From a virus, in IMG/VR virus record IMGVR_UViG_3300021062_000001: 64,000 nucleotides of DNA; one strand, given 5' to 3'. Every line of letters starts with the position of its first letter. The stretch's first letter is position 1. Below are positions 15,591 through 64,000 of the stretch, piece after piece. The translations under genes and the position numbers were made by a program. The notes beneath the pieces are model-generated. The model was given only the letters and a program-made list of their open reading frames with translations, made no database searches and had not been told where the DNA came from.

Positions 15591-15596
15591 GGGTTC

Positions 15597-15610: not shown

Positions 15611-15637
15611 ACGCCCCCGAAGTCAAAGGAGTGACAG

Positions 15638-42095: not shown

Positions 42096-42583
42096 CAGGC
42101 CAGGCTAGGGGCGAAAGGGGACGGGGCCGCCTGACGGTTCTCGCGGCGGATCGCCTCGTACACTTCCTTACGGTGGACCGGGACGTCGGCCGGGGCCACG
42201 AACCCGAGCCGGACCTTGTCGCCGCGGATGTCGACGACCGTGTACTCGCAGGCCGTGGGTACCTTGTACCCCTCGCCCCTGCCGGCCGCGACCGCGTCGG
42301 CGAACTTCTGCAGCTCCGCGGGCTCCACCAGCACGATCGACTCGTCCCGCTGGCGGGAGAGGACGAGGTTGCCCCCGCCCTTGCGCTCGCGGACCGGCGG
42401 CGGCTGGTTGCCCCGGGCGATGTCCTGTAGGATCTGGACGTAGAGTTCCTTGCGGTAGACCTGGTACTGCTCCGGGGCCTTGATGCCGGTACGGACCTTG
42501 TCGCCGCGGATGTCAACGACGGTGACCTCGACGTCATCGCCGATGAGCGTGGACTCGTCTCGTTGACGGGAGAGAACGAGCAT
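42092..42583 (-). CDS. csrA: tandem (two-domain, single-chain) CsrA/RsmA-family RNA-binding protein
   Basis: MLVLSRQRDESTLIGDDVEVTVVDIRGDKVRTGIKAPEQYQVYRKELY, then NLVLSRQRDESIVL...EYTVVDIRGDKVRLGFVAPADVPVHRKEVY; AAGGAG SD on the minus strand. Confidence 0.85.
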   Translation of the reverse strand: MLVLSRQRDESTLIGDDVEVTVVDIRGDKVRTGIKAPEQYQVYRKELYVQILQDIARGNQPPPVRERKGGGNLVLSRQRDESIVLVEPAELQKFADAVAAGRGEGYKVPTACEYTVVDIRGDKVRLGFVAPADVPVHRKEVYEAIRRENRQAAPSPFAPSLAC

Positions 42584-46694: not shown

Positions 46695-46771
46695 TTTCCC
46701 GGCGGACGCTTCCCGACACTCGACCGGACCACGGCGGCCCCGCGCCGCCACGACGACCTTTGGGACAACTC

Positions 46772-48499
46772 ATGAGCACGAACGATTACGTCTGGCTGAA
46801 CCCCGACTCGCAACGCTTCCTCGAAATGGACTACCTGCTGCCCGGCCAGACGGTCGACCAGCGGGTCGACATCATCTGCAACCGCGCCGAAGAGATCCTG
46901 AACCGCGACGGCGTGAAGCGGCCGGGGTGGGCCGCGAGGTTCAAGGCGAACGTCAAGAAGGGCTGGTACAGCTTCTCGTCGCCGGTGTGGGCCAACTTCG
47001 GCGTCACCCGCGGGCTGCCGATCAGCTGCTTCGGCTGCAACATCAACGACAGCGTGAAGAGCATCATGCAGGCCCACTACGAGGCCGGCATGATGTCCAA
47101 GTACGGCGGCGGGACCAGCGGCTACTTCGGCAACATCCGACCGCGCGGCACCCCGATCAAGGACAACGGCGAGTCGGCCGGCACGGCCAACTTCGCCCTG
47201 ATGTTCGAGACGCTCATCAAGGTCATCAGCCAGGGCAGCACCCGCCGCGGGCAGTTCGCCGGCTACTGGCCGATCGAGCACGGCGACATCATGGAGGTCC
47301 TGCAGTTCCGCTCGAAGGGGCACGACATCAAGCAGATGTCCTTCGGCGTGTGCGTCCCCGACGAGTTCATGGAGCGGATGATCGGCGGCGACATGAAGGC
47401 CCGCCAGATCTGGGCCGAGGTCCTCAAGGCCCGCGCCCGCACCGGCTACCCGTACATCCTGTTCATCGACAACGCGAACAAGTACGCCGTCGACGTCTAC
47501 CGCGACAAGGGGATGCGGATCGTCGCGAGCAACCTGTGCACGGAGATCATGCTCCCGGCGACGGCCGGCGACTCGCTGACCGAGCAGGCGACCGGCGTCC
47601 GCACGACGGGCGGCGCGGCCGAGGAGGGCGAGAGCTTCGTGTGCGACCTCGGCTCGATGAACGACCGGTACTACGACGACTGGAAGGACACCGACGCCGT
47701 CCAGCTGAAGGTCGAGTTCCTCGACGCCGTCATGACGGACTTCATCGACCGGGCCACGGGCAAGGCCGGGATGGAGCGGGCCGTGCGGTTCGCGACCCGA
47801 CACCGCGCCCTCGGACTCGGACAGCTCGGGTACCACGACTACCTGCAGTACAAGAACGTGCCGTTCGAGAGCATGCAGGCCAAGCGGTACAACGCCGAGA
47901 TCTCGCAGACGATCCAGCGGCAGGCCCTCGAAGCGTCCCGCCGGCTCGCGGCCGACTACGGCGAGCCGGAAGTGCTCAAGGGGTACGGCCGGCGGAACAC
48001 GACGCTGACCGCGATCGCCCCGACGATGTCGTCCAGCTTCATCCTCGGCGGCGCGTCGCAGGGCATCGAGCCGTGGCAGGCGAACTACTTCATCCGCGAC
48101 CTGCAGAAGGGGAAGTTCACCATCGTCAACCAGCAGCTCAAGGCGGTGCTGGCGGCGAAGGGCAAGGACGACCGCGAGACGTGGGAGTCGATCCTCAAGC
48201 ACGGCGGCAGCGTCCAGCACCTCGACTGCCTCGACGCCCACGAGAAGGACGTCTACAAGACGTTCGCCGAGATCAACCCGATGGAGATCGTCGTGCAGGC
48301 GGCGCAGCGGCAGAAGTACCTGTGCCAGGGCCAGTCGACGAACCTGCTGATCGACCCCAAGGTGTCGGTGAAGGACGTCAACGCCCTGTACGTCGAGGCC
48401 TGGCGTCTCGGGGTGAAGTCGCTGTACTATCAGATCAACGAGAACGCCGCGCAGCAGTTGAGCCGGTCGATCCTCACCTGTTCGAGCTGCGAGGGCTGA
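46772..48499 (+). CDS. nrdA: class I ribonucleotide reductase large subunit (short form, no ATP-cone)
   Basis: ATG 46772; active-site SNLCTEIMLP; C-terminal CSSCEG Cys pair. Confidence 0.85.
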   Translation: MSTNDYVWLNPDSQRFLEMDYLLPGQTVDQRVDIICNRAEEILNRDGVKRPGWAARFKANVKKGWYSFSSPVWANFGVTRGLPISCFGCNINDSVKSIMQAHYEAGMMSKYGGGTSGYFGNIRPRGTPIKDNGESAGTANFALMFETLIKVISQGSTRRGQFAGYWPIEHGDIMEVLQFRSKGHDIKQMSFGVCVPDEFMERMIGGDMKARQIWAEVLKARARTGYPYILFIDNANKYAVDVYRDKGMRIVASNLCTEIMLPATAGDSLTEQATGVRTTGGAAEEGESFVCDLGSMNDRYYDDWKDTDAVQLKVEFLDAVMTDFIDRATGKAGMERAVRFATRHRALGLGQLGYHDYLQYKNVPFESMQAKRYNAEISQTIQRQALEASRRLAADYGEPEVLKGYGRRNTTLTAIAPTMSSSFILGGASQGIEPWQANYFIRDLQKGKFTIVNQQLKAVLAAKGKDDRETWESILKHGGSVQHLDCLDAHEKDVYKTFAEINPMEIVVQAAQRQKYLCQGQSTNLLIDPKVSVKDVNALYVEAWRLGVKSLYYQINENAAQQLSRSILTCSSCEG

Positions 48500-48680: not shown

Positions 48681-48718
48681 GGACGCCCCGGGCCACGCTC
48701 GGGGCGTCCTGCTTTATT
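48681..48718 (+). terminator. strong intrinsic terminator
   Basis: 10-bp stem GGACGCCCCG / CGGGGCGTCC, 9-nt loop, then TGCTTTATT. Confidence 0.8.
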
Positions 48719-50810: not shown

Positions 50811-51173
50811 ATGGACGCGCGTACCGCATTTAAGCAGGGCTTCATCGCCCACTGCATCGAGCTGGGACACACCGACCCGGCCGCGATCCGCGACATCGTC
50901 AAGCAGGCGTTCGTCACGGAGGCGGTCAACAAGGTCACGAACTTCGCCACCGGGGCCGGCAAGCTCGGCCTCGGGCTCGCCCTCGCCGCCCCGCCGATCG
51001 TCGGCGGCGTCGCCGGCCACCTCGCGGCCAAGGCGACCGACGTCTCGGACTACGACGTCGAGGAGGCCAAGAAGCAAGAGGTCATCGACGAGTACCGCCG
51101 CCAGGCCGAGCGCATGCGGCGGTCCGGGCTGCTGCGTCGGTACACGGCGGGCGGGCCGGGCAACCTGCTCTAA
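50811..51173 (+). CDS. hypothetical protein with central TM segment
   Basis: GKLGLGLALAAPPIVGGVAGHLAA; AAGGAGG upstream. Confidence 0.6.
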   Translation: MDARTAFKQGFIAHCIELGHTDPAAIRDIVKQAFVTEAVNKVTNFATGAGKLGLGLALAAPPIVGGVAGHLAAKATDVSDYDVEEAKKQEVIDEYRRQAERMRRSGLLRRYTAGGPGNLL

Positions 51174-51182: not shown

Positions 51183-51584
51183 ATGGCCAGCTCCAGCATC
51201 TTCAAGTTCGCGAACCAGACGAACGGCGGCAAGGGCCGCATCCTGCACTGGGGCCGCGCCGACATCGACGGTGCCCCGTTCCGCGGGTCCGCCCCGCCGA
51301 TGCTGCAGGGCGAGGAGATGGAGGACCGGCTCGTGCGGGTCGCCGACCCGCACGTCCGCATCTTCGACCTGAGCAACGAGCACGACACGAAGGCCTACCT
51401 CGAAGTGCGGGACATGATCGTGAACGGGTGGGCGCACACGGTCTACTGCAAGCGGGTGGTGACACGGAACCGGAAGACGGACCTGATCCGCGTTCGCATC
51501 GTCCTTGAGTGGGTCCAGTTCTACATGCAAGACGGCCAGCCGATGATGTCGCAGCGGCCGTACATCGGGAGGTCCAATGACTAG
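51183..51584 (+). CDS. hypothetical protein
   Basis: 133 aa ORF. Confidence 0.6.
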   Translation: MASSSIFKFANQTNGGKGRILHWGRADIDGAPFRGSAPPMLQGEEMEDRLVRVADPHVRIFDLSNEHDTKAYLEVRDMIVNGWAHTVYCKRVVTRNRKTDLIRVRIVLEWVQFYMQDGQPMMSQRPYIGRSND

Positions 51585-52467
51585 CGCGAACCCCTTCGTC
51601 ACCCTCGGCCGCTTCGCCGCGAGCGAGAAGCAGGCCCTCGACCCGGCCGCGTACGAGCAGCAGCTCGCCAGCGCCGGCATGAAGGACATCATGCACACCG
51701 GGCTGGCCGCCCTCGGCGTCGGCGCGGCCGCCCGCGGCGCGATGGGCCTGGCGAACCTCGTCAAGCGGCACACGAACCCGCCCCGGCCGAAGTACCCGCA
51801 GGCGATCGTGACCCGCGTGCCCGTCCCCGTCGAGGAGGACGAGGAGAAGACCGCCGCGATCACGGCCAAGGACGCCCACCCGTGGTACTACCCGGGCATG
51901 CTGCTGGCCGGCGGGGCGGGCCTGGTCGGCGGGTGGAAGGGCGTGGACTTCCTGCTGGAGAAGCAGCGGACCGCCCAGAAGGAGCACGAGCTGCGGCGGG
52001 CCAAGGGCGACTTCGAGGAGGCCCTGCTGTCGAGCTACGGCCAGCCCCGCAAGATCGGGCCGGGCGGGGTCGCGACCAAGACGGCCGCCGCCGAGCTGGG
52101 CGAGCTGCTCGACGGCGTGTTCGACGGCATGCAGCAGAAGCAGGCGTTCAACTGGGACAACCTCAAGGGCCGGATCGGCGGCATGTACGGCATGTACGCC
52201 CTGGCGACCGGCATCCCCGCCGCGATGTGGCAGTACAACCGCACGAGCAGCACGGGCCGCGGGGCCACGCTCGACAAGGCGATGAAGCTCCGCAGCCGCA
52301 AGGCGTACATGAACCGCCCGAGCGAGATCTACGCGGTCCCGGAGCCGGTGCTGCGACGCAAGCCGGCCCCGGCCGCCGACGCCGCCGCGCTGGCCGAGGT
52401 CGAGGGCGAGCCGACGCTTGAGGGCGACGCGCCGCTCAAGCCCCGCCGCCGCGTCGACTTCCTGTAA
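51577..52467 (+). CDS. hypothetical membrane protein
   Basis: 296 aa; GLAALGVGAAARGAMGL, WYYPGMLLAGGAGLVGGW. Confidence 0.6.
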   Translation: MTSANPFVTLGRFAASEKQALDPAAYEQQLASAGMKDIMHTGLAALGVGAAARGAMGLANLVKRHTNPPRPKYPQAIVTRVPVPVEEDEEKTAAITAKDAHPWYYPGMLLAGGAGLVGGWKGVDFLLEKQRTAQKEHELRRAKGDFEEALLSSYGQPRKIGPGGVATKTAAAELGELLDGVFDGMQQKQAFNWDNLKGRIGGMYGMYALATGIPAAMWQYNRTSSTGRGATLDKAMKLRSRKAYMNRPSEIYAVPEPVLRRKPAPAADAAALAEVEGEPTLEGDAPLKPRRRVDFL

Positions 52468-52500: not shown

Positions 52501-55500
52501 ATGGGCCGCCTCGGATCTGGCATCAACATCATGGGGGATTCGGACCTCGGCATCATGGACGCGATGCCGGGGTTCGTCTCCGCGCCCATGCAGCTGCAGG
52601 CCCCGAAGCCCGTCGAGGAGGTCGAGGCCGAGCCCGAGGGGCTGCGGGCGTTCGGCGACGTGGACGCGACCCGCAAGGCGATCTACGACTCCGTGTTCGA
52701 GGCCGCCTCGAAGATGGAGCCGACGAAGAACCAGAAGCACACGCTCCGGCTGACCGGCGTGCAGTGGCAGGACCCGGACAAGTTCACGATCCGCCAGCGG
52801 AAGGAGGCCCTGCTGCGGGGCGAGACGCTCGGCCGCCGGCTCAAGGGCACCTGGGAGCTGCTCGACAACGCGACGAACCAGGTGATCGACCGCCGCGAGC
52901 AGACCGTGCTCCGCGTCCCGCACCTGACCGGGGGCGGCACGTTCGTCCACAACGGAAGCGACTACGCGCTGGGCAACCAGCAGCGGCTCCGCTCGGGCAT
53001 CTTCGCCCGCGTGAAGGACAACGGCGAGTACGAGTCGCACGTCAACGTGCTGGAGGGCGGCCCCTCGCACAAGATCCAGCTGAACCCGGAGAAGGGCGTC
53101 TTCTACGTCAACATCGGGCAGGCGAACATCCCGCTGCTGCCGCTGCTGCAGACGCTCGGGGCGAGCGAGAAGGACCTCCGCGCGGCGTGGGGCGACGACC
53201 TGTACGCCCGGAACTACCAGAAGGCGGACGGGACGGCGATGGCGAAGATCGTCGCCAAGTTCCTGAAGAAGCCGCCGGTCGACGGCACGAGCACGGCCGA
53301 CGCCCTCCGCCAGACGTTCGAGAACATGCGGCTCGACCCCGAGGTCACCAAGCGGACGCTCGGCCAGCCGTACGACCGCCTGGGCAAGGACGCGCTGGTC
53401 GCCGCGACCGCCAAGCTCCTGCGGGTCCACCGCAAGGAGGAGGAGCCGGACGACCGCGACCACCTCGCGTACCAGACGTTCCTCGGCCCCGAGGACCTGT
53501 TCGCCGAGCGGCTCCGCAAGGACCGCGCCGGCGTCCGCCGCAACATGCTCTTCAAGATCAGCGGCAAGGGCAGCCTGCGGGCGATGGGCTCCAGCCCGCT
53601 GCAGGACCAGATCGACTCGGCGATCATGTCGTCGGGGCTCGGCCAGGCCCTCGAAGAGATCAACCCGGCGGAGATCCTCGACAAGAACACGAAGATCAGC
53701 CGGATGGGCGAGGGCGGCATCCCGAGCTACGACGCGGTCCCCGACGAGGCCCGCGCCGTGCAGCCGTCGCACTTCGGGTTCATGGACCCGCTCCGCACCC
53801 CGGAGAGCTTCAAGGCCGGCGTGGACGTGTTCCTGAGCGGCAACGTCCGCAAGGGCCGCGACGGGAAGCTGTACGGCCGGTTCGTCGACGCCCGCACCGG
53901 CAAGCCGGCGTGGAAGACGCCGCAGGAGGTCGCGGACGCCGTCGTCACGTTCCCGGGGGCCGACAAGCTCCCGTACAAGCGCATCCCCGCGATGAAGAAC
54001 GGGCGGATGGGCTGGGCGACCCGCGAGGAGGTCGGCCTGGTGCTGCCGACGATGGAGCACGCGTTCAGCCCGATCGACAACCTGATCCCGCTCAAGAGCC
54101 AGCTCAAGGGCCAGCGGGCCAGCATGGCGAGCCGGATGACCACCCAGGCCCTGCCGCTGGTCGGCGCTGAGGCCCCGCTGGTGCAGAGCGGCCTGCCCGG
54201 CTCCAAGGGCGAGCGGAGCTACGAGGAGGAGTACGCGAAGCACATGGGGGCCGTCGTCGCCGACCGCGGCGGCAAGGTCCTGGCCGTGACGCCGGACGCG
54301 ATGACGGTGAAGTACGACGACGGCAAGGTCGACACGATCGAGCTGTACAACAACTTCCCCTACAACCGCAAGACGGGCATCACGCAGACGCCGACCGTCA
54401 AGCCCGGCCAGCGGTTCGAGGCCAAGCAGCCGATCGCCCGGTCGAACTTCACGGACGACAAGGGGGCCGCCGCGCTGGGGCTCAACGCCCGCGTCGCGTA
54501 CATGCCGTGGGGCGGCCAGAACTTCGAGGACGCGATCGTCATCAGCGAGGGCATGGCCAAGCGGATGACGTCCGAGCACATGTACCAGAACGGGCTGGAG
54601 GTGAACGACCGCACGAAGGTCGGCCGCAAGGAGTTCATCTCGCTCTTCCCGTCGAAGTACGACAAGGCCACGCTGGCGAAGCTCGACGATAAGGGCCTCA
54701 TCAAGCCCGGCACCCAGGTCCACTTCGGCGACCCGCTGATCCTCGCCGCCGAGGAGCGGAGCACGGCCCAGAACAAGATCCACAAGAAGGGCACGCCCGC
54801 GTTCAACGACGTGTCCGTCACCTGGGACCACCACGACCCCGGCATCGTCACCGACGTCGTCGAGGGCAAGAACGGCCCGGTCGTCCTGGTGAAGAGCCAG
54901 CACCCGATGCAGGTCGGCGACAAGATGAGCGGGCGGTACGGCGACAAGGGCGTCGTCAGCGCGATCATCCCGGACGACCAGATGCCGCACGACAAGGACG
55001 GCAAGCCGTTCGAGGTGCTGCTGAACGACCTGGGCGTCATCAGCCGGACGAACCCGAGCCAGTGGGCCGAGGCCAAGCTCGGGGCGATCGCCGCCAAGCT
55101 GGGCAAGGCGATGAAGGTCGAGGACTTCGACCCGGCGGTCGAGGACCGCGCGGCGTGGGTCGAGGAGCAGATGCGGAAGCACGGCATCCCCGACCAGGAG
55201 GACGTGACCGACCCGGTGCGGGGGACGAAGATCCCGGGCATCTCGACCGGCAACCGCTTCTTCATGAAGCTCCACCACACGGCCGAGTCCAAGGGGCAGG
55301 GCCGCGGGTCGGGCGCGTACGCCTCGGACGACACGCCGGCCAAGGGCGGCGAGACGGGCAGCAAGCGGAACTCGCTGCTGAACGTGAACGCCCTGCTCTC
55401 GCACGGGGCGACCGACTACCTGCAGGACGTCGGGGCGATCAGCGGCCAGCGGAACGAGGACTACTGGCTCCAGTTCATGCAGGGGTTCTCGCCCCGCAAG

Positions 55501-57006
55501 CCGAAGGTCCCGCTCGTGTACGAGAAGTTCGTCAACGAGCTGAAGGGGGCCGGGATCAACGTCGTCCGCGAGGGCAGCCAGCTCCACGTCATGGCGCTGA
55601 CGGACAAGGACGTCGACCACCTGGCCGGCGACCGCGAGATCGAGGTCGGCGACACGGTCGACTTCTACAACGAGCTGAAGCCCGTGAAGGGCGGCCTGTT
55701 CGACAAGACGAAGACCGGCGGCCACCACGGCAACCGGTGGGCGGCGATCAAGCTCGCGGAGCCGATGCCGAACCCGGTCATGGAGGAGCCGATCCGCCGC
55801 GTGCTCGGGCTGACGCAGAAGCGGTTCGAGGACGTGATCGCCGGCCGCGAGCCGCTGAACCCGCAGACCGGGGCGACCGGCCCGCGGGCGATCGCCGAGG
55901 CCCTGAAGACGATGAACGTCGACCGGGAGATCGCGATCGCCCGGGCGAAGATCCAGAACGGCACGAAGGCCGAGCGGGACATGGCCGTGCGGAAGCTCGG
56001 CTACCTCAAGAGCGCGAAGAAGACGGGCGTCCTGCCGGGCGACTGGGTGCTGAACCGCGCCCCGGTCCTGCCGCCGCAGTTCCGCCCCGTGAACGTGATG
56101 GGCGGGAAGAACGTACCGCTCGTCGCGGACGCGAACTTCCTCTACAAGGAGCTGTTCGAGGCGAACAAGAACCTCCGCGACATGAGCGAGCAGGTGGGCG
56201 ACGACGTCGGCGACGAGCGGCTGGCGGTGTACCACGCGTTCAAGGCGGTCACGGGCCTCGGCGAGCCGATCACGCAGAAGAGCCAGGAGAAACAGGTCAA
56301 GGGAATCCTAAAATCGGTTTTTGGATCTTCGCCGAAGTTCGGCACCGTGCAGCGGAAGCTGATCGGCTCCACGGTCGACAACGTCGGCCGGGGCGTCGTC
56401 GTCCCGAACCCGGACCTCGACATGGACAGCGTCGGGCTCCCGGAGGACCGGGCGTTCGACGTCTACAGCCGGTTCGTCGTCCGCCGCCTCCGCCGCTCGG
56501 GCATGCCGATGGCCCAGGCCCTGCGGCACGTCAAGGACAAGAGCCCGCTGGCCCGGAAAGTGCTGGTCGAGGAGATGGACCACCGGCCGGTGGTCGTCAA
56601 CCGCGCCCCGGTGCTCCACCGGTTCGGCATCATGGCGTTCCGCCCCAAGCTCGTGAAGGGCTCGGTGCTGCACGTCCCGCCGCTGATCGTGAAGGGCTTC
56701 GGCATGGACTTCGACGGCGACGCGGTGCAGTACCACGTCCCGACGAGCGAGGACGCCCGGGCCGAGGCCCTCGACCGGATGCTGCCCAGCCGGCAGCTGC
56801 TGAGCCCCGGCGACTTCAAAAGCCCCGTGCACGTCCCGGGGCAGGAGTACGTCGGCGGGCTGTACAAGGCGACGAGCGGCCGCAGCAAGCGGCCGGTCCG
56901 CTACTTCCGCAGCGCCAAGGACGTCCGCCACGCCTGGGAGCACGGTGAGGTCGCGATCGACGACGTCATCAAGGTCCTGGGCGACGCGGTCGCGGCGAAG
57001 CGGTAG
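52501..57006 (+). CDS. multisubunit RNA polymerase: beta-like subunit fused to the N-terminal (RpoC1-like) half of beta'
   Basis: Beta motifs: RAVQPSHFGFMDPLRTPES, GQNFEDAIVISE, GDKMSGRYGDKGVVS, FFMKLHHTAESK. Beta' motifs: NRAPVLHRFGIMAF and catalytic MDFDGDAVQYHVP. Confidence 0.9.
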   Translation: MGRLGSGINIMGDSDLGIMDAMPGFVSAPMQLQAPKPVEEVEAEPEGLRAFGDVDATRKAIYDSVFEAASKMEPTKNQKHTLRLTGVQWQDPDKFTIRQRKEALLRGETLGRRLKGTWELLDNATNQVIDRREQTVLRVPHLTGGGTFVHNGSDYALGNQQRLRSGIFARVKDNGEYESHVNVLEGGPSHKIQLNPEKGVFYVNIGQANIPLLPLLQTLGASEKDLRAAWGDDLYARNYQKADGTAMAKIVAKFLKKPPVDGTSTADALRQTFENMRLDPEVTKRTLGQPYDRLGKDALVAATAKLLRVHRKEEEPDDRDHLAYQTFLGPEDLFAERLRKDRAGVRRNMLFKISGKGSLRAMGSSPLQDQIDSAIMSSGLGQALEEINPAEILDKNTKISRMGEGGIPSYDAVPDEARAVQPSHFGFMDPLRTPESFKAGVDVFLSGNVRKGRDGKLYGRFVDARTGKPAWKTPQEVADAVVTFPGADKLPYKRIPAMKNGRMGWATREEVGLVLPTMEHAFSPIDNLIPLKSQLKGQRASMASRMTTQALPLVGAEAPLVQSGLPGSKGERSYEEEYAKHMGAVVADRGGKVLAVTPDAMTVKYDDGKVDTIELYNNFPYNRKTGITQTPTVKPGQRFEAKQPIARSNFTDDKGAAALGLNARVAYMPWGGQNFEDAIVISEGMAKRMTSEHMYQNGLEVNDRTKVGRKEFISLFPSKYDKATLAKLDDKGLIKPGTQVHFGDPLILAAEERSTAQNKIHKKGTPAFNDVSVTWDHHDPGIVTDVVEGKNGPVVLVKSQHPMQVGDKMSGRYGDKGVVSAIIPDDQMPHDKDGKPFEVLLNDLGVISRTNPSQWAEAKLGAIAAKLGKAMKVEDFDPAVEDRAAWVEEQMRKHGIPDQEDVTDPVRGTKIPGISTGNRFFMKLHHTAESKGQGRGSGAYASDDTPAKGGETGSKRNSLLNVNALLSHGATDYLQDVGAISGQRNEDYWLQFMQGFSPRKPKVPLVYEKFVNELKGAGINVVREGSQLHVMALTDKDVDHLAGDREIEVGDTVDFYNELKPVKGGLFDKTKTGGHHGNRWAAIKLAEPMPNPVMEEPIRRVLGLTQKRFEDVIAGREPLNPQTGATGPRAIAEALKTMNVDREIAIARAKIQNGTKAERDMAVRKLGYLKSAKKTGVLPGDWVLNRAPVLPPQFRPVNVMGGKNVPLVADANFLYKELFEANKNLRDMSEQVGDDVGDERLAVYHAFKAVTGLGEPITQKSQEKQVKGILKSVFGSSPKFGTVQRKLIGSTVDNVGRGVVVPNPDLDMDSVGLPEDRAFDVYSRFVVRRLRRSGMPMAQALRHVKDKSPLARKVLVEEMDHRPVVVNRAPVLHRFGIMAFRPKLVKGSVLHVPPLIVKGFGMDFDGDAVQYHVPTSEDARAEALDRMLPSRQLLSPGDFKSPVHVPGQEYVGGLYKATSGRSKRPVRYFRSAKDVRHAWEHGEVAIDDVIKVLGDAVAAKR
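56304..56328 (+). promoter_or_regulatory. palindromic box copy 11, variant, inside the RNAP ORF (AATCCTAAAATCGGTTTTTGGATCT)
   Basis: AT-rich island in a GC-rich gene; nearly identical to copy 3; encodes ILKSVFGSS. Confidence 0.45.
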
Positions 57007-57026
57007 CGTCAAGGAGGACGCGCACC

Positions 57027-57341
57027 ATGGAACTGATCGCTCGACCACTGAAGTTCGGCGGGCCGAAGCTGCGGCGGGTCGCCCAGGCCGCCCGGGACCG
57101 CAGCGGGCGGCTGGCGGTGAACACCCCGATGCTCCACCTGATCGAGGCGTGCTACGCCGGCGGCCCCGACGACGTGCGGCTGGGCGTGGAGCACTACCAC
57201 GACCCGCTGCTCGACGGGCTGTACGCCGACCCCGTGGCCGTCGCGGTGACCGCCGACCGCTCGCTCGTCGGGCCGGGTCACCCGGACGACCAGTACCGAG
57301 GCATCCCGCCGGAGCGGGCCGCCTGTATCCTGTTCTCCTGA
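57027..57341 (+). CDS. hypothetical protein
   Basis: 104 aa; AAGGAGGA upstream. Confidence 0.6.
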   Translation: MELIARPLKFGGPKLRRVAQAARDRSGRLAVNTPMLHLIEACYAGGPDDVRLGVEHYHDPLLDGLYADPVAVAVTADRSLVGPGHPDDQYRGIPPERAACILFS

Positions 57342-57435
57342 CCGCCGCAGCGCACGGGGCTGGCGGCGGACCCGGTAGTTGTTACACTAACGGGTGAGCA
57401 CGCAAGGAAGCACTCAACACGCAAGGACGCGACCT

Positions 57436-58203
57436 ATGTCGAAGCACCTCGTCAACCCCCAGCTCCTCGGAATGGCGTACCAGAGCGTCGCCGGGTCGCT
57501 GGCCAAGCACGCCGCCGCACCGCAGCCCGTCGCGCGGTCGTTCAACCTGATGGACCCGAACGGGTACGACAAGGCAGCCTTCGTGCCGGCCGGCGACCCG
57601 AGCATGGACCCCGCGGCGGCGGCCGGCGGCGGCGCTCCCCCGCCCCCGGGTGGCGACCCTGCGGCCGGCGGCGGCGGTGCTCCCCCGGCCCCACCGGCGG
57701 CCCCGCCGGTCGACCCGAACATGATCGCCCAGCAGGTGCTGTCGATGATCCAGTCGCAGGGCGGCGGGATGGGCGGCGGCGGGGGCATGGGCGGCGTCGA
57801 GCCGATCAAGCCGAAGATCGACGTCAACGTCGAGATGCTCCAGATCAAGAAGATGCTCGCCAAGATCTGCGACACGCTCGGCATCGTCATCCCCGCGAGC
57901 GACATGGCCGTCACCAGCCAGGACCTGACCCAGATGGCCCAGCAGCAGGGCCAGGCGGGCGGGGCCGGCGGCGGTGCCCCGCAGCAGAGCGCGATCGCCC
58001 CGATCTCCCCGATGCAGCCGGCCGCGCCGGGCATGGGCGGGGGCGGCGACGCCGGCGGCGGCATGGGCGGCGGGCCGAAGATGGCCAGCGCCAAGCAGGC
58101 CGCGGTCAACAACGGCCGCGGGTTCAGCACCGAGGGCCTCGGCAACCTGACCAACAAGGCGGCCGCGATCGCTCAGCTCCGCAGCCGCCGCCGGGCGGGG
58201 TAA
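57436..58203 (+). CDS. hypothetical protein with Gly/Met/Pro-rich low-complexity blocks
   Basis: ATG 57436 (ORF from GTG 57394); QGGGMGGGGGMGG, GMGGGGDAGGGMGGG. Confidence 0.6.
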   Translation: MSKHLVNPQLLGMAYQSVAGSLAKHAAAPQPVARSFNLMDPNGYDKAAFVPAGDPSMDPAAAAGGGAPPPPGGDPAAGGGGAPPAPPAAPPVDPNMIAQQVLSMIQSQGGGMGGGGGMGGVEPIKPKIDVNVEMLQIKKMLAKICDTLGIVIPASDMAVTSQDLTQMAQQQGQAGGAGGGAPQQSAIAPISPMQPAAPGMGGGGDAGGGMGGGPKMASAKQAAVNNGRGFSTEGLGNLTNKAAAIAQLRSRRRAG

Positions 58204-58212
58204 GCAGCGACC

Positions 58213-58491
58213 ATGTTCGTCGAGATCCTGTCCAAGTTCGGGGGCGAGCCGATCCGCATCGAGGCGGCCCAGCTCGTCGTGCGTAACGACTCCGGCACGC
58301 CCGTGATGGTGGCGGGGGAGTACGGCCCGAACAGCACGATCCGCGTCTCGCACGGCGCGGACGAAGACTTCAACCAGTCGCTCAGGGCCTTCGGCTACGG
58401 TCAGGAGACCGTGGTCATGGAGACCGTGAGCACCAGCAACACGCCGATCCCGGCCGGTGCCCGCCGCGTTGGCGGCCCGTTTGGTCGGTGA
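58213..58491 (+). CDS. hypothetical protein
   Basis: 92 aa ORF. Confidence 0.55.
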   Translation: MFVEILSKFGGEPIRIEAAQLVVRNDSGTPVMVAGEYGPNSTIRVSHGADEDFNQSLRAFGYGQETVVMETVSTSNTPIPAGARRVGGPFGR

Positions 58492-58519
58492 CACCCCGTT
58501 CTCCGAAGGAGACACCCCG

Positions 58520-59536
58520 ATGGCAGCGAACGAAAGCTCGAACAAGGCCTACTACGGCAGCGGCCAGAAGTCCGTCATCAACAACAAGAACCCCCTGTAC
58601 CGCACGGGCAACGTCAACGACCCGCTCCAGGCCAACGCCTCCCCCGTCCACGTCGCCGGCGACACCTCGACCGACCAGTATTACAAGAACGGCGGCTCGA
58701 AGATGCAGCGGCGGGCGGCCGAGCCCGCGAAGTTCATCCCGGTCGACCCCCGCGCCGACTCCAAGGCCCGCCCGGCCGCCGGTGCCGCGTACACGACGCC
58801 GCTGGAGGGCGACCTCCGCCGGCCGCTGCTGGTGAAGGAGGGCCACCCCGCCGCGATCCGCGCCGCCGTCGCCCGCATCGTCGAGCTGCTGCTCGGCGGC
58901 ACGAGCCCGGTAATCGTCCACGTCGCCGACGTCGGCTTCGAGCCGGACATCCGCACGGGCCTCGACATCCGCGTCGCCCGCGAGGAGATCTCCCGCGACC
59001 AGTACCGCGACGTCCAGTTCTCCCTGGCCCCGAAGACCGGCACCGAGCTGGCCGACCAGACGTTCGGCGCGATCGACCCGGCGAGCCTGCCCGAGGTCAA
59101 GGTCGGCGAGGACCCCGAGGACGCGATCCCCGACGACATCGAGGCGTTCGTCAAGGGCAACACCGACGCGGACGACGTCGCCCCGGCCGCCCCCGAGGCG
59201 AGCCGCGTCCAGACGATCTCCGCCCCGGCCGCCCCGGCCGAGGACAACGACGACACGGACGACGACGTGACCAACACGCAGGGCTCGGACGGCCCGCAGG
59301 GTCCGGCCGGCGTCGCCGACGAGGCCCCGGTCGGCAACGTCCCCCGTCCCGAGGCCGTCAAGGCGGCCCCCGAGGCGAGCAACGAGGAGCCGGCGATCTC
59401 CACGACCGCCCCGGCGGCCGCCGACACCGACGACGAGGCCGAGACGGCCGACGAGCCGGCGGCCACGGGCGACGCCGCCCCCGCCGCCGCCGCCGACGCA
59501 CCGGCGACCGGCAAGAAGGGCCGCAACCGCCGCTGA
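58520..59536 (+). CDS. hypothetical protein with acidic disordered C-terminal half
   Basis: ATG 58520 after AAGGAG; 338 aa. Confidence 0.65.
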   Translation: MAANESSNKAYYGSGQKSVINNKNPLYRTGNVNDPLQANASPVHVAGDTSTDQYYKNGGSKMQRRAAEPAKFIPVDPRADSKARPAAGAAYTTPLEGDLRRPLLVKEGHPAAIRAAVARIVELLLGGTSPVIVHVADVGFEPDIRTGLDIRVAREEISRDQYRDVQFSLAPKTGTELADQTFGAIDPASLPEVKVGEDPEDAIPDDIEAFVKGNTDADDVAPAAPEASRVQTISAPAAPAEDNDDTDDDVTNTQGSDGPQGPAGVADEAPVGNVPRPEAVKAAPEASNEEPAISTTAPAAADTDDEAETADEPAATGDAAPAAAADAPATGKKGRNRR

Positions 59537-59560
59537 TCCTGACAGTCCGCACGCGACGAC

Positions 59561-59606
59561 GACGCACCCCGCGGACCGGCCTCGGCTGGCTACCACGGGG
59601 TGCGTC
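59561..59606 (+). terminator. terminator-like hairpin (no clear T-tract)
   Basis: 11-bp stem GACGCACCCCG / CGGGGTGCGTC with a 24-nt loop. Confidence 0.45.
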
Positions 59607-59613
59607 GTGTTAA

Positions 59614-59638
59614 GATCCAAAAACCGGTTTTGAGAAGC
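59614..59638 (+). promoter_or_regulatory. palindromic box copy 12 (GATCCAAAAACCGGTTTTGAGAAGC)
   Basis: Core 59620-59631; after a hairpin; 39 nt before GTG 59671. Confidence 0.6.
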
Positions 59639-59670
59639 CACGGACGGCGACACACAAGGCACGGAGGCCT

Positions 59671-62427
59671 GTGCAAACGACGGTCGGCCAACTCCTCGTC
59701 AACGAGCACCTGCCCGAGGACCTGCGGAACCACGACCGCGTCCTCGACAAGAAGGGCATCAACGCGCTCCTCCGCGACGTCGCCCAGCGGCACCCCGAGA
59801 AGTACCGCGAGATCTCCCACGCCCTCTCGACGATCGGCTGGCGGGCCGCCCAGGAGACGGGCGGCTACAGCTTCGGCATGCAGCACCTCCGCCCGGCGAA
59901 GGCCGCCCTGGCCCTGCGGGCGAAGCTCCGCGAGCAGATGCGGCAGGTGCTCGACGACGACAACCTCGACGACAAGACCCGCGAGGACCGCATCACCCGG
60001 CTGGCCGGCGCGCTCCAGAAGCAGCAGCAGGAGGATGTGTTCAACGAGAGCCTGGCCGAGAAGAACCCGCTCGCCTACCAAGTGCTCTCCGGCTCCCGCG
60101 GCAACAAGATGAACCTCGCGAGCCTGCGGGGCTCGGACATGCTGTACGCCGACCACCGGGACAACGTGATCCCGGTGCCGGTCCTGTCGAGCTACAGCGA
60201 GGGGCTGAAGCCGTGGGAGTATTGGGCCGGGACGTACGGTGCCCGCAAGGGTGTCATGGACGTGAAGTTCGCGACGCAGGACGCCGGCTTCCTGTCCAAG
60301 CAGCTGAACCAGGTCACGCACCGGCTCGTGGTCGAGGCCCTCGACCGCGACGGCGACGGCGAGCCGGACGCCCCGCCCCGCGGGCTCCCGGTCGACACGG
60401 ACGACATGGACAACGAGGGCTCGCTCCTCGCCCACGACGTCGGCCCGTACAAGCGGAACACGGTGCTGACCCCGAAGATCCTGTCGCACCTCCGGCAGAT
60501 CGGGCAGAAGCGCATCCTCGTGCGGAGCCCGGCCGTGGGCGGCACCCCGAACGGCGGCGTGTACGCCCGCGACGTCGGCGTCCGCGAGCACGGCACGCTC
60601 CCCGGCCGGGGCGAGATGCCCGGCCTCGCCGCCGTGCAGGCGCTGTCCGAGCCGCTGACGCAGGCCCAGATCTCCTCCAAGCACACGGGCGGCGTCGCCG
60701 GCGAGGGCAAGGCGATCTCCGGCTTCGAGTACGTCAACCAGCTCGTGCAGGTGCCGAAGAAGATGAAGGGCGGGGCGGCCCACTCCGACGAGGACGGCGT
60801 CGTCGGGCGGATCATCCCCGCCCCGGCCGGCGGCAACTACGTCTACGTGAACGGCAAGGAGCACTACGTCCCCGAGGGCGTCGAGCTGAAGGTCAAGCCG
60901 GGCGACCAGGTCGAGGCGGGCGACGTGCTGACCGCCGGCCTGCCGAACCCGTCCAAGATCGTCGAGCACAAGGGCATCGGCGAGGGCCGGCGGTACTTCG
61001 TCAAGGCGTTCCGGGAGGCGATGGGCGGGGCGAACATGACCGCCAACCGCCGGAACATCGAGCTGCTGTCGCGGGGGCTCATCAACCACGTCCGGCTGAC
61101 GGACGAGGTGGGCGAGCACGCGCCGGACGACCTCGTGCCCTACCACCTGGTCGAGAGCCGGTACCAGCCCCGCGACGACGCCGCCGAGGTCGAGCCGACG
61201 CTGGCCGGCAACCAGTACCTCGAACAGCCCGTGCTGCACTACACGGTCGGCACCCGCGTCCGCCCGAGCGTGATGCGGGACCTGCAGGAGTTCGGCGTGA
61301 AGAAGGTCCGCGTCCACCGCGACCCGCCGCCGTTCAAGGCCGAGATGGTCCGCGGCATGACCAGCCTGGCGAACGACCCGGACTGGATGACACGGATGTA
61401 CGGCTCGGGGCTCAAGGGCGGGCTGCTGAAGGCGGTCCACCGGGGCGGCACGAGCGACGAGGCGGGCACGAGCTTCGTCCCGAGCCTGGCCAAGGCCGTC
61501 GACTTCGGCCGCACGCCCGGCGGCATCGTCCGCAAGCCGTCGCCCGGGTGGGCACCCGAGCCGCCCGCCGCGATCAAGGTCGGCAGCTCCCCCGGCGTCC
61601 CGGGCGGACCGGCCGCCGGCGACGCCCCCGGCGCGCCGGGCGGGATCGGCTCGCCCCCGGGCGGGCTCGCCCCGCCGAAGCTCGCGCCGGCACCCGCCGC
61701 TCCGAAGCCCGCAGCGCCGGCCCCGCCGCCGGCGGCGACGCCCGCCCCCGCGCCGGCACCGGTGAAGCAGTACATGCCCGACACGGCCGCCCCGGAGCCA
61801 CAGGCCCCGCTGTGGTTCGGCGGGTACCAGCCGCAGCGCGGGTTCAACCAGCAGGCGGCGACCGCCCTGATGCCGTACGCCCAACACCTGGGGCCGCTCG
61901 CCCCGCTGGCGGTCATGGCCGGCGTCGACTTCAAGGCCCTCGGCACGCTGACCGGGCAGAAGGACTGGACGCACGGCACCGACTACACGCAGGGCCTTAG
62001 GACGCCGCAGACGCCCGCACCCGCCCTCCCGGCCCCTCCGACGCCCCCGGCGGCTCCTGCGACGCCCCAGGCCCCTCCGGCGGCCCCTGCGGTCCCGCCC
62101 CAGCAGCCGCCGGCACCCGTCCAGCCGCCGCCGGCCGCCCAACAACCGGGCTCAGCCGCTCCGAAGCCGCCTCTGCAGTTCAAGAGCGAGGCCGAGTTCT
62201 TCGCCCACCCGCCGGTGCAGACCGCGCTGCAGGGCTTCCGGGGCAAGCTGTTCAGCCAGGTGACGCCGCAGGGCTTCCACTGGGCAGGCGAGATCGCCGG
62301 CATGCCGCAGATGCAGCAGGCGGTGAAGTGGGAGCTGGAGCAGTACGTGCACCACCAGGACCCGGCCCGCCTGCAGGCCGGGCTCGACGCCGTGTACCAA
62401 GTCGTGATGAAGGCGAGGCAGCCATAA
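59671..62427 (+). CDS. multisubunit RNA polymerase beta' C-terminal (RpoC2-like) half with ~280-aa Pro/Ala-rich C-terminal extension
   Basis: Starts at the conserved TTVGQLLVNEHLP; trigger-loop region GLAAVQALSEPLTQAQISSKHTGGVAG; tail from about residue 630 is P/A-rich. Confidence 0.85.
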   Translation: MQTTVGQLLVNEHLPEDLRNHDRVLDKKGINALLRDVAQRHPEKYREISHALSTIGWRAAQETGGYSFGMQHLRPAKAALALRAKLREQMRQVLDDDNLDDKTREDRITRLAGALQKQQQEDVFNESLAEKNPLAYQVLSGSRGNKMNLASLRGSDMLYADHRDNVIPVPVLSSYSEGLKPWEYWAGTYGARKGVMDVKFATQDAGFLSKQLNQVTHRLVVEALDRDGDGEPDAPPRGLPVDTDDMDNEGSLLAHDVGPYKRNTVLTPKILSHLRQIGQKRILVRSPAVGGTPNGGVYARDVGVREHGTLPGRGEMPGLAAVQALSEPLTQAQISSKHTGGVAGEGKAISGFEYVNQLVQVPKKMKGGAAHSDEDGVVGRIIPAPAGGNYVYVNGKEHYVPEGVELKVKPGDQVEAGDVLTAGLPNPSKIVEHKGIGEGRRYFVKAFREAMGGANMTANRRNIELLSRGLINHVRLTDEVGEHAPDDLVPYHLVESRYQPRDDAAEVEPTLAGNQYLEQPVLHYTVGTRVRPSVMRDLQEFGVKKVRVHRDPPPFKAEMVRGMTSLANDPDWMTRMYGSGLKGGLLKAVHRGGTSDEAGTSFVPSLAKAVDFGRTPGGIVRKPSPGWAPEPPAAIKVGSSPGVPGGPAAGDAPGAPGGIGSPPGGLAPPKLAPAPAAPKPAAPAPPPAATPAPAPAPVKQYMPDTAAPEPQAPLWFGGYQPQRGFNQQAATALMPYAQHLGPLAPLAVMAGVDFKALGTLTGQKDWTHGTDYTQGLRTPQTPAPALPAPPTPPAAPATPQAPPAAPAVPPQQPPAPVQPPPAAQQPGSAAPKPPLQFKSEAEFFAHPPVQTALQGFRGKLFSQVTPQGFHWAGEIAGMPQMQQAVKWELEQYVHHQDPARLQAGLDAVYQVVMKARQP

Positions 62428-64000
62428 TGCGATCCACGTTCGCCCCTCTCCTCGAACCGTTGCTCAAGGCCGCCGAGGGCGTGCCCGGCAGCACCGGCGC
62501 GGCTACGGTCCCGGGCGGCGGCGGTGCCCCCAAGCCGATCGGCCTGAACTTCGGCGGCGGCGGTGCCGGCGGCGGCGGCACGAACCCGTACCTCAAGCCC
62601 GCGACCCAGCCCACGACCGTGCCGCCCGGCACGCTCGCCCCGGCCCCGAACCGGCCGGCGGCGGCGGCACCCGCCGCCCCCGCGCCCGCGCAGCCCGTGC
62701 AGCCCAACGCCAACGGCGGCGGCTTCCACCTGCCCGGACCCGGCGGCGGCCAGCCGCAACCGCAACAGCAGCAGCAGCCCGCGCCGGCACCGCCCCCGGC
62801 CGGCGGCAACCCGTTCCTGTCGAACCCGTACCTCCAGGGTCCGCCCAAGCTCGACCCGAGCGCGTACGACCAGCAGACGCTGGCCAACGCCGGCACGAGC
62901 TGGGCCGGCGGCACCCCGCCGCCCGAGGTCGCGGCCCGTTGGGATTCGGTGCGGAACCCGCCGTGGCGGCCGAGCGTGCGGTCGCAGATGAGCCGCGACC
63001 GGTGGCCCAACGTCCCGTTCGTGGGGCTGCAGGACCCGACGAACACCGGGCAGGGCGTCCCCGGCGGCGCGATGGCGATGCAGAACAACCTGTTCGCCGG
63101 CACGCTCGCCAACGACTTCGCCCTCCGCCCGACCGCGTGGGGCGCGGGCCAGGGCGCGAGGCTGCTCACCGGCTCGACCCCGGCGTGGCTCGGCGGCACG
63201 AGCCGGTTCCTCGGCGGGGCCAGCCACCTCGGCAACGCGGCCGCCCCGCTGATGCTGAACTACGACGTGACCGAGGACGGCAGCGGGAACATGAACCAGG
63301 CGGTCATGTCGCCGGCCATGCTCCGCATGCTCGCGACCGGGAAGTACGCCCCCACCGCTGCCCCCGGCGCGACGGCGCTCGGCCGGGCCGGTGCCGCCGG
63401 CGGTCGCGTCCTGCCGTACGCCTACTGGGCGGCCGAGCTGGGCAAGGAGGGGTACGGCAGCTACGCCCGGGGCAAGGAGCTGGACCCGAACGCGAACTGG
63501 CTCGTGGCGACCGGGAAGGGCAACGCCGACCGGTACATGCAGCTGACGCGGGCGAACGACCGGGCCGCCCACGGCAGCTGGGCCGACGTCATGGCCCAGG
63601 CGGGCGAGAACATGGACCACCCGGTCCAGATGCTCGAACACGCCCCCGAGGTCGTCTACCGGGGCGGGCAGGCGATCAACGCCGGTGCCGGGGCCTGGTC
63701 GTCCGCCCGCGACGTGAACGCCGGCTCGGGCCGACTGGACACGGCGCTGGAGGCCGCCAACGCCGCGCGGCAGCAGTCCGGGGCGACGCCGTACGAGCGG
63801 CGGATCGGCAGCACCCAGGTCGACTTCACCGACCGGACCTCGAACGCCTGGCAGCTCGGGTTCCTGCCCGACGACAAGCGGGTCCGGCCGAAGCACCTGG
63901 GCACGGGCGAGGTGTACGAGGACGAGCGGCTCTTGCCCCAGCGGTGGCAGGTTGCCCGCCGGCTCGACGCGGCCCGGCCGTTCATCCACCCGAACCTCCC
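62427..64000 (+). CDS. hypothetical protein, 3'-truncated by the window edge (not on ORF track)
   Basis: ATG 62427 overlaps the TAA of the upstream gene (TAATG). Frame is open and GC3-rich to position 64000. MRSTFAPLLEPLLKAAEG..., G/P/Q-rich N-terminus. Confidence 0.7.
   Translation, partial: MRSTFAPLLEPLLKAAEGVPGSTGAATVPGGGGAPKPIGLNFGGGGAGGGGTNPYLKPATQPTTVPPGTLAPAPNRPAAAAPAAPAPAQPVQPNANGGGFHLPGPGGGQPQPQQQQQPAPAPPPAGGNPFLSNPYLQGPPKLDPSAYDQQTLANAGTSWAGGTPPPEVAARWDSVRNPPWRPSVRSQMSRDRWPNVPFVGLQDPTNTGQGVPGGAMAMQNNLFAGTLANDFALRPTAWGAGQGARLLTGSTPAWLGGTSRFLGGASHLGNAAAPLMLNYDVTEDGSGNMNQAVMSPAMLRMLATGKYAPTAAPGATALGRAGAAGGRVLPYAYWAAELGKEGYGSYARGKELDPNANWLVATGKGNADRYMQLTRANDRAAHGSWADVMAQAGENMDHPVQMLEHAPEVVYRGGQAINAGAGAWSSARDVNAGSGRLDTALEAANAARQQSGATPYERRIGSTQVDFTDRTSNAWQLGFLPDDKRVRPKHLGTGEVYEDERLLPQRWQVARRLDAARPFIHPNL

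Follow-up and report, generated by a model that had tools for sequence, protein, structure and literature searches.

A phage RNA polymerase core made of a beta-beta'N fusion protein and a separately encoded C-terminal half of beta'

Organization of the polymerase genes

The 64,000-nucleotide stretch of the IMG/VR virus record IMGVR_UViG_3300021062_000001 analyzed here, called the window throughout, encodes a phage's own bacterial-type two-barrel RNA polymerase (RNAP), the catalytic core of which is made up of two polypeptides. In the first, 1501 residues long, the beta subunit is joined to the N-terminal half of beta' (beta'N); the second, of 918 residues, is encoded 2.7 kb downstream, and starts with the C-terminal half of beta' (beta'C). 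The same arrangement had been proposed from the letters and the translated open reading frames (ORFs) alone (the sequence-only reading), and is borne out at the residue level by alignments to the Escherichia coli subunits and by a query spanning the break in beta'. Observation and main interpretation both hold: the core is fused and split at once, and lacks the lineage-specific insertions SI1-3, zinc sites and cysteines. The wording of a minimal two-polypeptide enzyme, used in the sequence-only reading, is appropriate for the catalytic core only. Coordinates of all features are given in Table 1.

The window is part of the ~224-kb genome of an uncultured tailed phage, an identical fusion protein being encoded by a 224,432-bp contig, k141_2268 of ENA ERZ27257313. 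Its GC content is about 69%, and gene calling by third-position GC content places essentially all genes, densely packed, on the plus strand. The 1501-aa and 918-aa ORFs are the only frames in their regions with a third-position GC of ~0.96-0.99, as is typical of real genes in the window.

Table 1. Features of the polymerase locus and copies of the repeated palindrome; positions are those of the window
Feature	Position	Strand	Description and evidence
Gene directly upstream of the fusion	51577..52467	+	~300 aa, conserved, cysteine-free; same place in many loci; in the L017 cysteine-free block
beta-beta'N fusion gene	52501..57006	+	1501 aa, no cysteine; Pfam domain order, phmmer to E. coli beta and beta', 136 homologs
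beta module (aa 1-~1026)	52501..55578	+	Complete between E. coli residue ~100 and the natural C-terminus; SI1 and SI2 missing
Active-site pair GQNFEDA	54514-54534	+	beta module
Lysine pair GDKMSGRYGDKG	54916-54951	+	beta module
beta/beta' junction (aa 1026-1038)	55576..55614	+	Global alignment to concatenated E. coli beta and beta'; AlphaFold2 model
beta'N module (aa ~1036-1501)	55606..57003	+	E. coli beta' ~18-589; phmmer, Foldseek
Loop DKTKTGGHHGN (11 residues)	55702..55734	+	In place of the beta' N-terminal zinc ribbon; alignment to E. coli (C70, C72, C85, C88)
Lid VLPPQFRP	56065-56088	+	beta'N module
NRAPVLHR	56599-56622	+	beta'N module
Catalytic GMDFDGD	56701-56721	+	beta'N module
104-aa ORF	57027..57341	+	Called gene on the source contig; homolog in 0/63 loci (tblastn, jackhmmer); this phage only
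p240 (255 aa)	57436..58203	+	Alternative start 57394; homolog in the fusion-beta'C gap of 62/63 loci (jackhmmer)
p80 (92 aa)	58213..58491	+	Small, beta-rich, always after p240; 57/63 loci (jackhmmer)
338-aa protein	58520..59536	+	Alternative start 58457; acidic, low-complexity, no cysteine; 14/63 loci (jackhmmer), window's subclade only
AT-rich palindrome AAAACCGGTTTT	59620..59631	+	Lies 51 nt before beta'C; 12 copies in all
beta'C core (aa 1-640)	59671..61590	+	E. coli beta' 590 to ~1360, without SI3; Pfam, phmmer to Thermus and Streptomyces beta'
TTVGQ (aa 3-7)	59677-59691	+	beta'C core
Bridge helix (aa 190-215)	60238-60315	+	beta'C core
Former Zn2 positions, now R, G, Y, D	60340-60354, 60532-60579	+	Zn2 alignment
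Trigger loop SEPLTQAQISSKHTGG (aa 326-341)	60646-60693	+	beta'C core; conserved histidine, compact, no SI3
beta'C C-terminal tail (aa 641-918)	61591..62427	+	278 aa; P/A/Q/G-rich linkers and two short, more ordinary segments; not RNAP
AAAACCGGTTTT copies	4688, 11398, 16332, 21145, 24626, 29862, 34917, 39177, 43243, 50327, 56310, 59620	+	Motif search

The fusion gene

Pfam domains of beta and then of beta' follow one another in order within the single 1501-aa ORF: Rpb2_3 (residues 382-440), Rpb2_6 (595-941, E=5e-52), Rpb1_1 (1175-1231, a weak match) and Rpb1_2 (1353-1425, E=1e-22). Such domain searches were the check put forward in the sequence-only reading, and the hallmark motifs quoted there for the two ORFs are all present and collinear. 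In the fusion they are RAVQPSHFGFMDPLRTPES (residues 418-436), GQNFEDA (672-678), GDKMSGRYGDKG (806-817), FFMKLHHTAESKGQGRGSG (920-938), YEKFVNELKGAGINV (1007-1021), NRAPVLHR (1367-1374) and GMDFDGD (1401-1407).

By phmmer, residues 127-183, 294-750, 800-869 and 853-1024 of the fusion correspond to residues 113-170, 420-887, 1057-1126 and 1162-1340 of E. coli beta, which is 1342 residues long. As the match runs to residue 1340, beta is complete to its natural C-terminus, devoid of SI1 and SI2. Bacterial beta subunits are matched at E~1e-67, cyanobacterial beta being collinear with residues 121-1030. GQNFEDA and GDKMSGRYGDKG align with NFEDS and with K1065/K1073 of E. coli beta, and are kept across the family of related phage proteins described below. 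In the second part of the protein, residues 1124-1459 correspond to E. coli beta' 178-515. Among PHROG families, phrog_24349 and phrog_25354 are the best matches, the families made of jumbo-phage RNAP pieces scoring much lower.

Directly after the beta C-terminus (...AGINVVREG) the chain continues with beta' from about residue 18, about 17 N-terminal residues of beta' being deleted. The sequence-only reading had likened the junction to that of Helicobacter, which is correct in kind. In an AlphaFold2 model of residues 961-1501, built on a 65-sequence alignment, the junction is predicted with confidence and the flanking strands lie in one hairpin. Cyanobacterial gamma, plastid RpoC1 and bacterial beta' are the best Foldseek matches of this model (E~1e-30); TM-scores against solved structures are low (~0.4), as the isolated chain is multi-domain, and only E-values and the identity of the matches were used.

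The three catalytic aspartates are kept in GMDFDGD, the residues corresponding to N458 and A459 of E. coli being replaced by G and M, respectively. In E. coli, N458 touches the ribose of the incoming nucleoside triphosphate. The N458 to G change is found in 37 of 129 family members, and the canonical NADFDGD in 91 of 129.

The break in beta' and the separate C-terminal half

Pfam matches in the 918-aa ORF are Rpb1_4 (weak) and Rpb1_5 (E=2e-15). The fusion ends with ...DAVAAKR and the second ORF starts with MQTTVGQ, where E. coli beta' reads ...SLKD/TTVGR. A query spanning the break aligns without interruption over residues 3-399 to residues 375-797 of the full-length bacterial beta' 9n9p_D, and no residues were therefore lost at the break. 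The position of the break, at about E. coli beta' 589/590, is invariant in the family, beta'C always beginning with M-x-TT[LVIA]GQ; the start of the second ORF at TTVG, pointed out in the sequence-only reading, is thus a family trait. The catalytic motifs are conserved over 136 fusion and 60 beta'C homologs. Judged from the alignments, the catalytic elements are all intact, namely the ED and lysine pairs of beta, and NRAPxLHR, DFDGD, the lid, the bridge helix and the trigger-loop histidine of beta'.

The break had been placed at the same site as the RpoC1/RpoC2 split of cyanobacteria and plastids. It does lie in the same inter-domain segment, after the double-psi beta-barrel (DPBB) domain, but about 16 residues upstream of the cyanobacterial break, as estimated by coordinate transfer from phmmer matches to gamma and beta'. 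The view that both polypeptides are much shorter than the bacterial subunits is overstated: beta spans ~1026 residues and beta' ~466 plus ~640, close to the shortest bacterial enzymes.

In most family members beta'C ends after 612-652 residues. Long tails are confined to the subclade of the window (the window itself, L002, L005, L007, L044-L046 and L066-L068), where they measure 280-1200 residues and are P/A/G/Q-rich and of low complexity. The tail encoded in the window is similar to those of L002 and L068 only, in short patches. It occupies the position held in eukaryotic Rpb1 by the C-terminal repeat domain.

Distribution of the family and cultured relatives

A protein search yielded 797 relatives; among the sequences retrieved, 136, of ~1450-1530 residues, have the same architecture, show 54-81% identity and reside on contigs of up to ~250 kb. 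The fusion of the window is found as an identical protein on 5 contigs. A few of the family fusions carry inteins. Interruptions of the fusion or beta'C by inteins, LAGLIDADG and HNH elements occur in P0004, P0006, P0053, L004, L032, L051, L062, L067 and L068. In IMG/VR, 62 loci share the layout, on contigs of up to 235 kb. The family is a large group of uncultured tailed phages. Among the 185,579 species genomes of GTDB there are two matches, both on contigs of metagenome-assembled genomes (MAGs) and none in the genome of an isolate; a cellular origin was accordingly rejected.

In 63 of 67 loci beta'C lies downstream of the fusion on the same strand, the other four loci being truncated. The gap between the two genes varies from 899 to 6669 bp, and they are never adjacent.

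A tblastn search of 50,697 phage records showed that Salmonella phage Arash and the Vibrio phages D69, D181 and D148 share this architecture; in D181 and D148 a homing endonuclease splits the region of the fusion gene. The Arash fusion, gp206 (1525 aa), covers 96% of the window fusion in one piece at ~30% identity, and its beta'C is gp216 (606 aa). The D69 fusion (1527 aa) covers 92% at ~26% identity, beta'C (0264, ~606 aa) being downstream on the same strand. Arash and D69 lack the N-terminal zinc ribbon, as does the window phage, and an SF2 helicase is linked to the cluster. Within the family such a helicase, cysteine-free, of the SNF2/SF2 type and 34% identical to Arash gp217, is inserted between the fusion and p240 in L010, L011, L013 and L054 (about 14340-15900); no copy was seen in the window. 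Unlike the window phage, Arash and D69 keep four cysteines of the second zinc site (Zn2), carry no p240 or p80 in the locus, and have genomes of ~180-187 kb rather than ~224 kb. Nine genes, most of them on the opposite strand, separate the fusion from beta'C in Arash; in D69 the interval holds two tiny ORFs. In both phages the fusion is directly preceded by a gene of portal size, which bears a portal annotation in Arash only.

The Arash genome has a single place that matches RNAP by tblastn, that is, one RNAP set, and no alpha subunit is annotated in the parts of the genome examined. By mass spectrometry, gp206 is the most-detected protein of the Arash virion (3516 spectra, 100% coverage, 128 unique peptides), and gp216, the neighbouring helicase gp217 and the sigma factor gp10 are abundant as well (PMC10585845). 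The protein gp10 is a genuine member of the sigma-70 family.

Loss of zinc sites and cysteines

The sequence-only reading had noted that the cysteines of the beta' N-terminal zinc finger seem absent. The loss is more extensive, as the second zinc site is also gone and both proteins are cysteine-free. In the window phage the ribbon is deleted, and R, G, Y and D stand where E. coli has C814, C888, C895 and C898. Deletion of the ribbon is family-wide, the consensus being GGLFDxxLTGGHxGNRW. Not one cysteine occurs in the 2419 residues of the two RNAP chains, against 1.01% (164/16,175) in the other proteins of the window (P~2e-11). Cysteine-free fusions number 119 of 136 in the family, the highest cysteine counts being found in longer versions bearing inteins or endonucleases. 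Nearly all beta'C proteins are free of cysteine too, exceptions being mainly interrupted, intein-bearing copies and basal members, which have the four Zn2 residues.

Arash gp216, the D69 beta'C and those of the basal loci L047 and L058 have exactly the four Zn2 cysteines and no other; all four are replaced in the crown group. Because Zn2 is kept in Arash, D69 and the basal members, its loss is secondary, the ribbon having been lost early and Zn2 later.

In L017 the cysteine-free proteins form a contiguous block of two upstream genes, the fusion, p240, p80 and beta'C, flanked by genes with cysteine. In the Arash locus, proteins detected in the virion contain 0.30% cysteine versus 1.16% in the others (Fisher p=6e-4; p=0.01 when RNAP is left out). 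This is the pattern expected of proteins that leave the reducing cytoplasm, and may be taken as indirect support for packaging of the polymerase in the capsid.

Other cysteine-free proteins of the window are encoded at 17496-21140, 21791-24085, 15638-16237 and 51577-52467. Two of the cysteine-free proteins, of 1214 and 764 residues, have no match in Pfam or PHROG, and may be virion or ejected proteins.

Genes between the two halves

The sequence-only reading had suggested that four genes located between the halves could encode accessory or specificity subunits. Two of them, p240 and p80, are family-wide and tightly coupled; of the others, the gene for the 338-aa protein is restricted to one subclade, and the 104-aa ORF is unique to this phage and probably lies outside the RNAP system. 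None of the four has a Pfam or PHROG match, and the conserved genes nearby, in the window and in relatives of lower GC content, gave nothing useful either.

The layout of p240 consists of an N-terminal helix, 3-6 tandem repeats of the MDPAAMGGAPP type, a central helix and a basic C-terminal tail. For p80, 67 database homologs were found by profile search and two by single-sequence search. Its AlphaFold2 model, of five strands and a helix, has a predicted local distance difference test score (pLDDT) of ~90 over residues 1-60. The predicted fold has no structural neighbour in PDB or BFVD, and an omega-like or sigma-like identity of p80 is unsupported.

The gene order fusion, p240, p80, variable inserts, beta'C is a conserved and tightly packed module. 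The shortest fusion-beta'C gaps hold exactly p240 and p80. In 39/39 non-redundant loci the stop codon of p240 overlaps or directly touches the start of p80, and in 24 of these the p80 stop is 10 nt or less from the start of beta'C, inserted genes being present in the remainder. Such tight coupling suggests a partnership with the polymerase, and p240 and p80 are candidate partners, although tentative ones. The conserved gene directly upstream of the fusion is possibly part of the same module, and in L017 a gene with a tail-tip domain lies three genes downstream.

Comparison with other polymerases

The two-barrel enzymes of phiKZ and AR9 type are also phage-encoded and devoid of alpha and omega, and one of these enzymes travels in the virion. 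In their beta' the split follows the DPBB domain, at a site reported to be the same as that of the cyanobacterial split (PMC7598289), a trait shared with the window phage, where the break is at ~589/590. The RNAP genes of phiKZ-like phages are associated with an SF2 helicase (PMC7824862), which is echoed by the helicase found within the module of L010, L011, L013 and L054. Differences are marked. In the phiKZ/AR9-type enzymes beta is split too, into two or three polypeptides, with 4-5 chains in total and nothing fused, whereas beta of the window is one ~1026-aa module; their sequences are far more divergent from bacterial RNAP than those of the window; and phiKZ-like phages have two RNAP sets, Arash one.

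The best PHROG matches of the window RNAP come from mReC phages and Kleczkowskaviridae (Rhizobium phage RHph_Y65), which are tailed phages with beta and beta' alignable to bacterial RNAP. In the accessible portion of Weinheimer & Aylward 2020, the mReC phages have beta (~1000-1420 aa) and beta' (~900-1300 aa) in separate genes that mostly neighbour each other, and in RHph_Y65 beta' is unsplit (1127 aa). Identity with the mReC clade is unsupported: the subunit genes are separate there, and none of the metagenome IDs checked links the related contigs to the accessible portion of the mReC list.

The division of beta' in the segment after DPBB is shared with cyanobacterial and plastid RpoC1 (gamma)/RpoC2. 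Unlike those proteins, the phage polymerase has no SI3, its two genes lie apart, and beta'N is fused to beta. Natural rpoB-rpoC fusions, in which the beta C-terminus is covalently attached to the beta' N-terminus, are known from Helicobacter and Wolbachia. These enzymes are cellular, and have a full-length beta', zinc sites, alpha and omega, whereas the fused beta' of the phage stops after DPBB.

The Arash paper names gp206 and gp216 'beta' and 'beta'' with no mention of a fusion or a split (PMC10585845). The window polymerase is of the same architectural type. Enzyme class and layout are present in deposited, annotated genomes, and no published description of the fused-and-split architecture as such was found in the literature.

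A repeated palindrome upstream of phage genes

The palindrome AAAACCGGTTTT, with one mismatch allowed, occurs in 12 copies in the window, all on the plus strand, against 0.01 expected. In its extended form it reads GATCyAAAACCGGTTTTkrGAAG. Ten of the 12 copies lie 11-53 nt before a start codon, with a Shine-Dalgarno sequence between; they include those before the tubulin gene, before the operon leading into the fusion (50327) and before beta'C. The copy at 56310, with one mismatch, lies within the fusion ORF. In L002, L046, L067 and L005, members of the same subclade, AT-rich palindromes of their own, of the AAAA-N4-TTTT type, are located 28-41 nt before beta'C. Repeated palindromes of L029, L015 and L013 were discarded as regulatory sites, as they lie in coding sequence. 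No promoter of the sigma-70 type was found in the 48-64 kb region of the window, where the only strong terminator is at 48681-48709. The repeated AAAACCGGTTTT is a candidate regulatory motif, promoter- or operator-like.

Other genes of the window

No alpha or omega is visible among the called genes of the window, in agreement with the sequence-only reading; the Pfam scan, which covered 64 of ~224 kb and left out a few ORFs of less than 100 aa, showed no domain of either subunit. A sigma factor was found neither by Pfam in most genes of the window nor by tblastn with Arash gp10 in the window and the related loci. Rfam detects no RNA gene of any kind in the window. Three tRNAs called by ARAGORN on the minus strand (17822-17906, 34292-34380 and 50921-51000) were dismissed as false positives, being antisense within plus-strand ORFs, of odd lengths, and not recognized as tRNA by Rfam.

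Domain scans revealed, among genes usual in large phages, a tubulin/FtsZ homolog, glycosyltransferases and a ribonucleotide reductase. The tubulin/FtsZ-family protein (11432-12703; Pfam Tubulin 2e-14, Tubulin_2 8e-11) is preceded by the palindrome at 11398. Tubulins are known from the phiKZ-like nucleus-forming phages, the RNAPs of which are organized quite differently. A response-regulator receiver domain on its own is encoded immediately downstream of the tubulin gene (12742-13113; Pfam Response_reg, 5.5e-18). The ribonucleotide reductase (45369-46694 and 46760-48499) has an ATP-cone at the N-terminus of the small subunit and a short large subunit (579 aa) without cone, an unusual layout that places allosteric control on the radical-generating subunit. 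One of the very few minus-strand genes (42092-42583) encodes a product which on the source contig matches CsrA (PF02599); a CsrA-like gene is also found in L002, a 71% relative under NCBI accession JAWVHG010000123.1. At least five genes of glycosyltransferase families and a SAM methyltransferase gene, at 8758-11363, 13768-14577, 25860-28019 and 31196-31909, suggest modification of glycans or of DNA and protein. A gene for a 734-aa G/P/Q-rich protein (62427-64000) starts at the beta'C stop and extends past the window end; none of the related loci encodes a homolog, and the gene precedes a family-wide one of ~800-865 aa.

Discussion

The data are best accounted for by a two-chain phage RNAP core set in a wider scheme which, taken as a whole, is considered likely. 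The covalent beta-beta' tether would replace the role of the alpha dimer in assembly. The polymerase would be packaged in the capsid and injected with the DNA, early phage genes being transcribed without host RNAP, and this packaged enzyme may be the only RNAP of the phage. The proteins p240 and p80 would be its partners in assembly, packaging or specificity, and at the AT-rich palindromes found before many genes, beta'C included, transcription would be controlled in a phage-specific manner. The most likely role, with a slightly better than even chance, is that of a polymerase carried in the capsid for transcription independent of the host; abundance in the Arash virion, the cysteine-free signature and the gene neighbourhood all point to it.

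Several observations weigh against this scheme. The only virion proteomics is that of Arash, which is ~30% identical and neither this phage nor a close relative, and its authors noted that abundant non-structural proteins could contaminate virion preparations (PMC10585845). Cysteine poverty is a correlate of virion location only, and its correlation was seen with 19 proteins of one locus. Sigma, alpha and omega were not found, but only 64 of ~224 kb were covered. The N458 position is occupied by G in the window phage. As to p240 and p80, they have no homolog in the RNAP loci of Arash and D69, the p80 fold matches nothing known, and neighbouring genes are syntenic as well, conserved order being common among phage core genes and no proof of physical association.

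The idea that the ORFs are products of a frameshift or a faulty assembly, or that the cellular rpoBC of a reduced bacterium was assigned to a virus by mistake, has to be considered, since frameshifts may arise in high-GC metagenome assemblies, two homologs reside on contigs binned in bacterial MAGs, and one relative in an NCBI MAG assembly. What refutes it is that 136 independent proteins and two cultured phage groups (Arash, 1525 aa, and D69, 1527 aa) all have this architecture; moreover, the same protein is found on 5 contigs, the context is phage-like, with no Rfam RNA gene, and no isolate genome encodes a homolog, so that its probability is practically negligible. Replacement of the canonical asparagine of NADFDGD by glycine, loss of both zinc sites and the great abundance in Arash virions could rather hint at an inactive or exapted relic with a structural role in the particle. 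Yet the family, with an overall identity of 50-80%, has conserved all the catalytic elements, most relatives keep NADFDGD, and the far more divergent enzymes of phiKZ and AR9 are active (PMC7598289), which makes a relic very improbable. A polymerase made after infection for middle and late genes, the early ones being left to the host RNAP or to another enzyme and cysteines being lost for some other cause, would have a precedent in the non-virion enzyme of phiKZ-like phages (PMC7598289). It would agree with the carry-over of highly expressed proteins considered by the Arash authors (PMC10585845), and with a palindrome located before the polymerase's own beta'C, as expected for expression during infection; a second RNAP might be encoded in the ~160 kb outside the window. 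However, Arash has one RNAP set, and gp206 is the most-detected protein of its virion; polymerase genes lie beside portal and tail genes; and the contiguous cysteine-free genes, like a Zn2 site lost secondarily, are in keeping with a protein bound to leave the cell, there being no evident reason for such losses in a purely cytoplasmic enzyme. An enzyme confined to the infected cell is thus judged improbable.

More difficult to decide is whether p240 and p80 have to do with transcription at all. With the core as described, they may be head-internal, scaffold-like or ejection proteins encoded in a shared late-gene block, an explanation whose chances come close to even. The succession of helix, low-complexity repeats, helix and basic tail in p240 resembles scaffolding or ejection proteins, the p80 fold is unlike any known RNAP subunit, both proteins are missing from the RNAP loci of Arash and D69, and positional conservation of the genes up- and downstream indicates that synteny is general in the region. 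Against this, both genes stay between the polymerase genes in 57-62 of 63 loci despite gene gain and loss around them, the p80 stop abuts the beta'C start in 24/39 loci, an arrangement typical of subunits of one complex, and both proteins are cysteine-free like the polymerase.

The favoured scheme, of a two-chain core that may be carried in the capsid, can be extended to large tailed phages that form a widespread lineage of their own, to which the tubulin-encoding window phage would belong. There the sole RNAP would be zinc- and cysteine-free and capsid-borne, with the tether replacing alpha, p240 and p80 as integral partners in assembly, packaging or the choice of promoters, and lineage-specific AT-rich palindromic promoters. 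This extension is doubtful; if true, phages would have a third, independent means of transcribing their genes without the host, next to the virion polymerases of N4 and phiKZ type, and the enzyme would be the simplest known natural multisubunit RNAP core.

Importance is tempered by the fact that the layout is already in annotated public genomes, that the enzyme class is known, and that functional claims are inferred. Multisubunit RNAPs of phages serve two questions, the minimal size of a cellular-type polymerase and the escape of phages from dependence on the host. A two-chain core closely alignable to bacterial RNAP, having neither insertions nor zinc nor cysteine, and with no alpha or omega in view, should serve well as a minimal model in studies of assembly and structure and in engineering. 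The zinc sites disappeared step by step, the ribbon throughout the family and Zn2 in the crown group alone, which amounts to a clear natural experiment on their purpose. If the virion role is true, the enzyme would be a third type of injected polymerase, and a large group of phages should resist rifampicin and defences that target the host RNAP.

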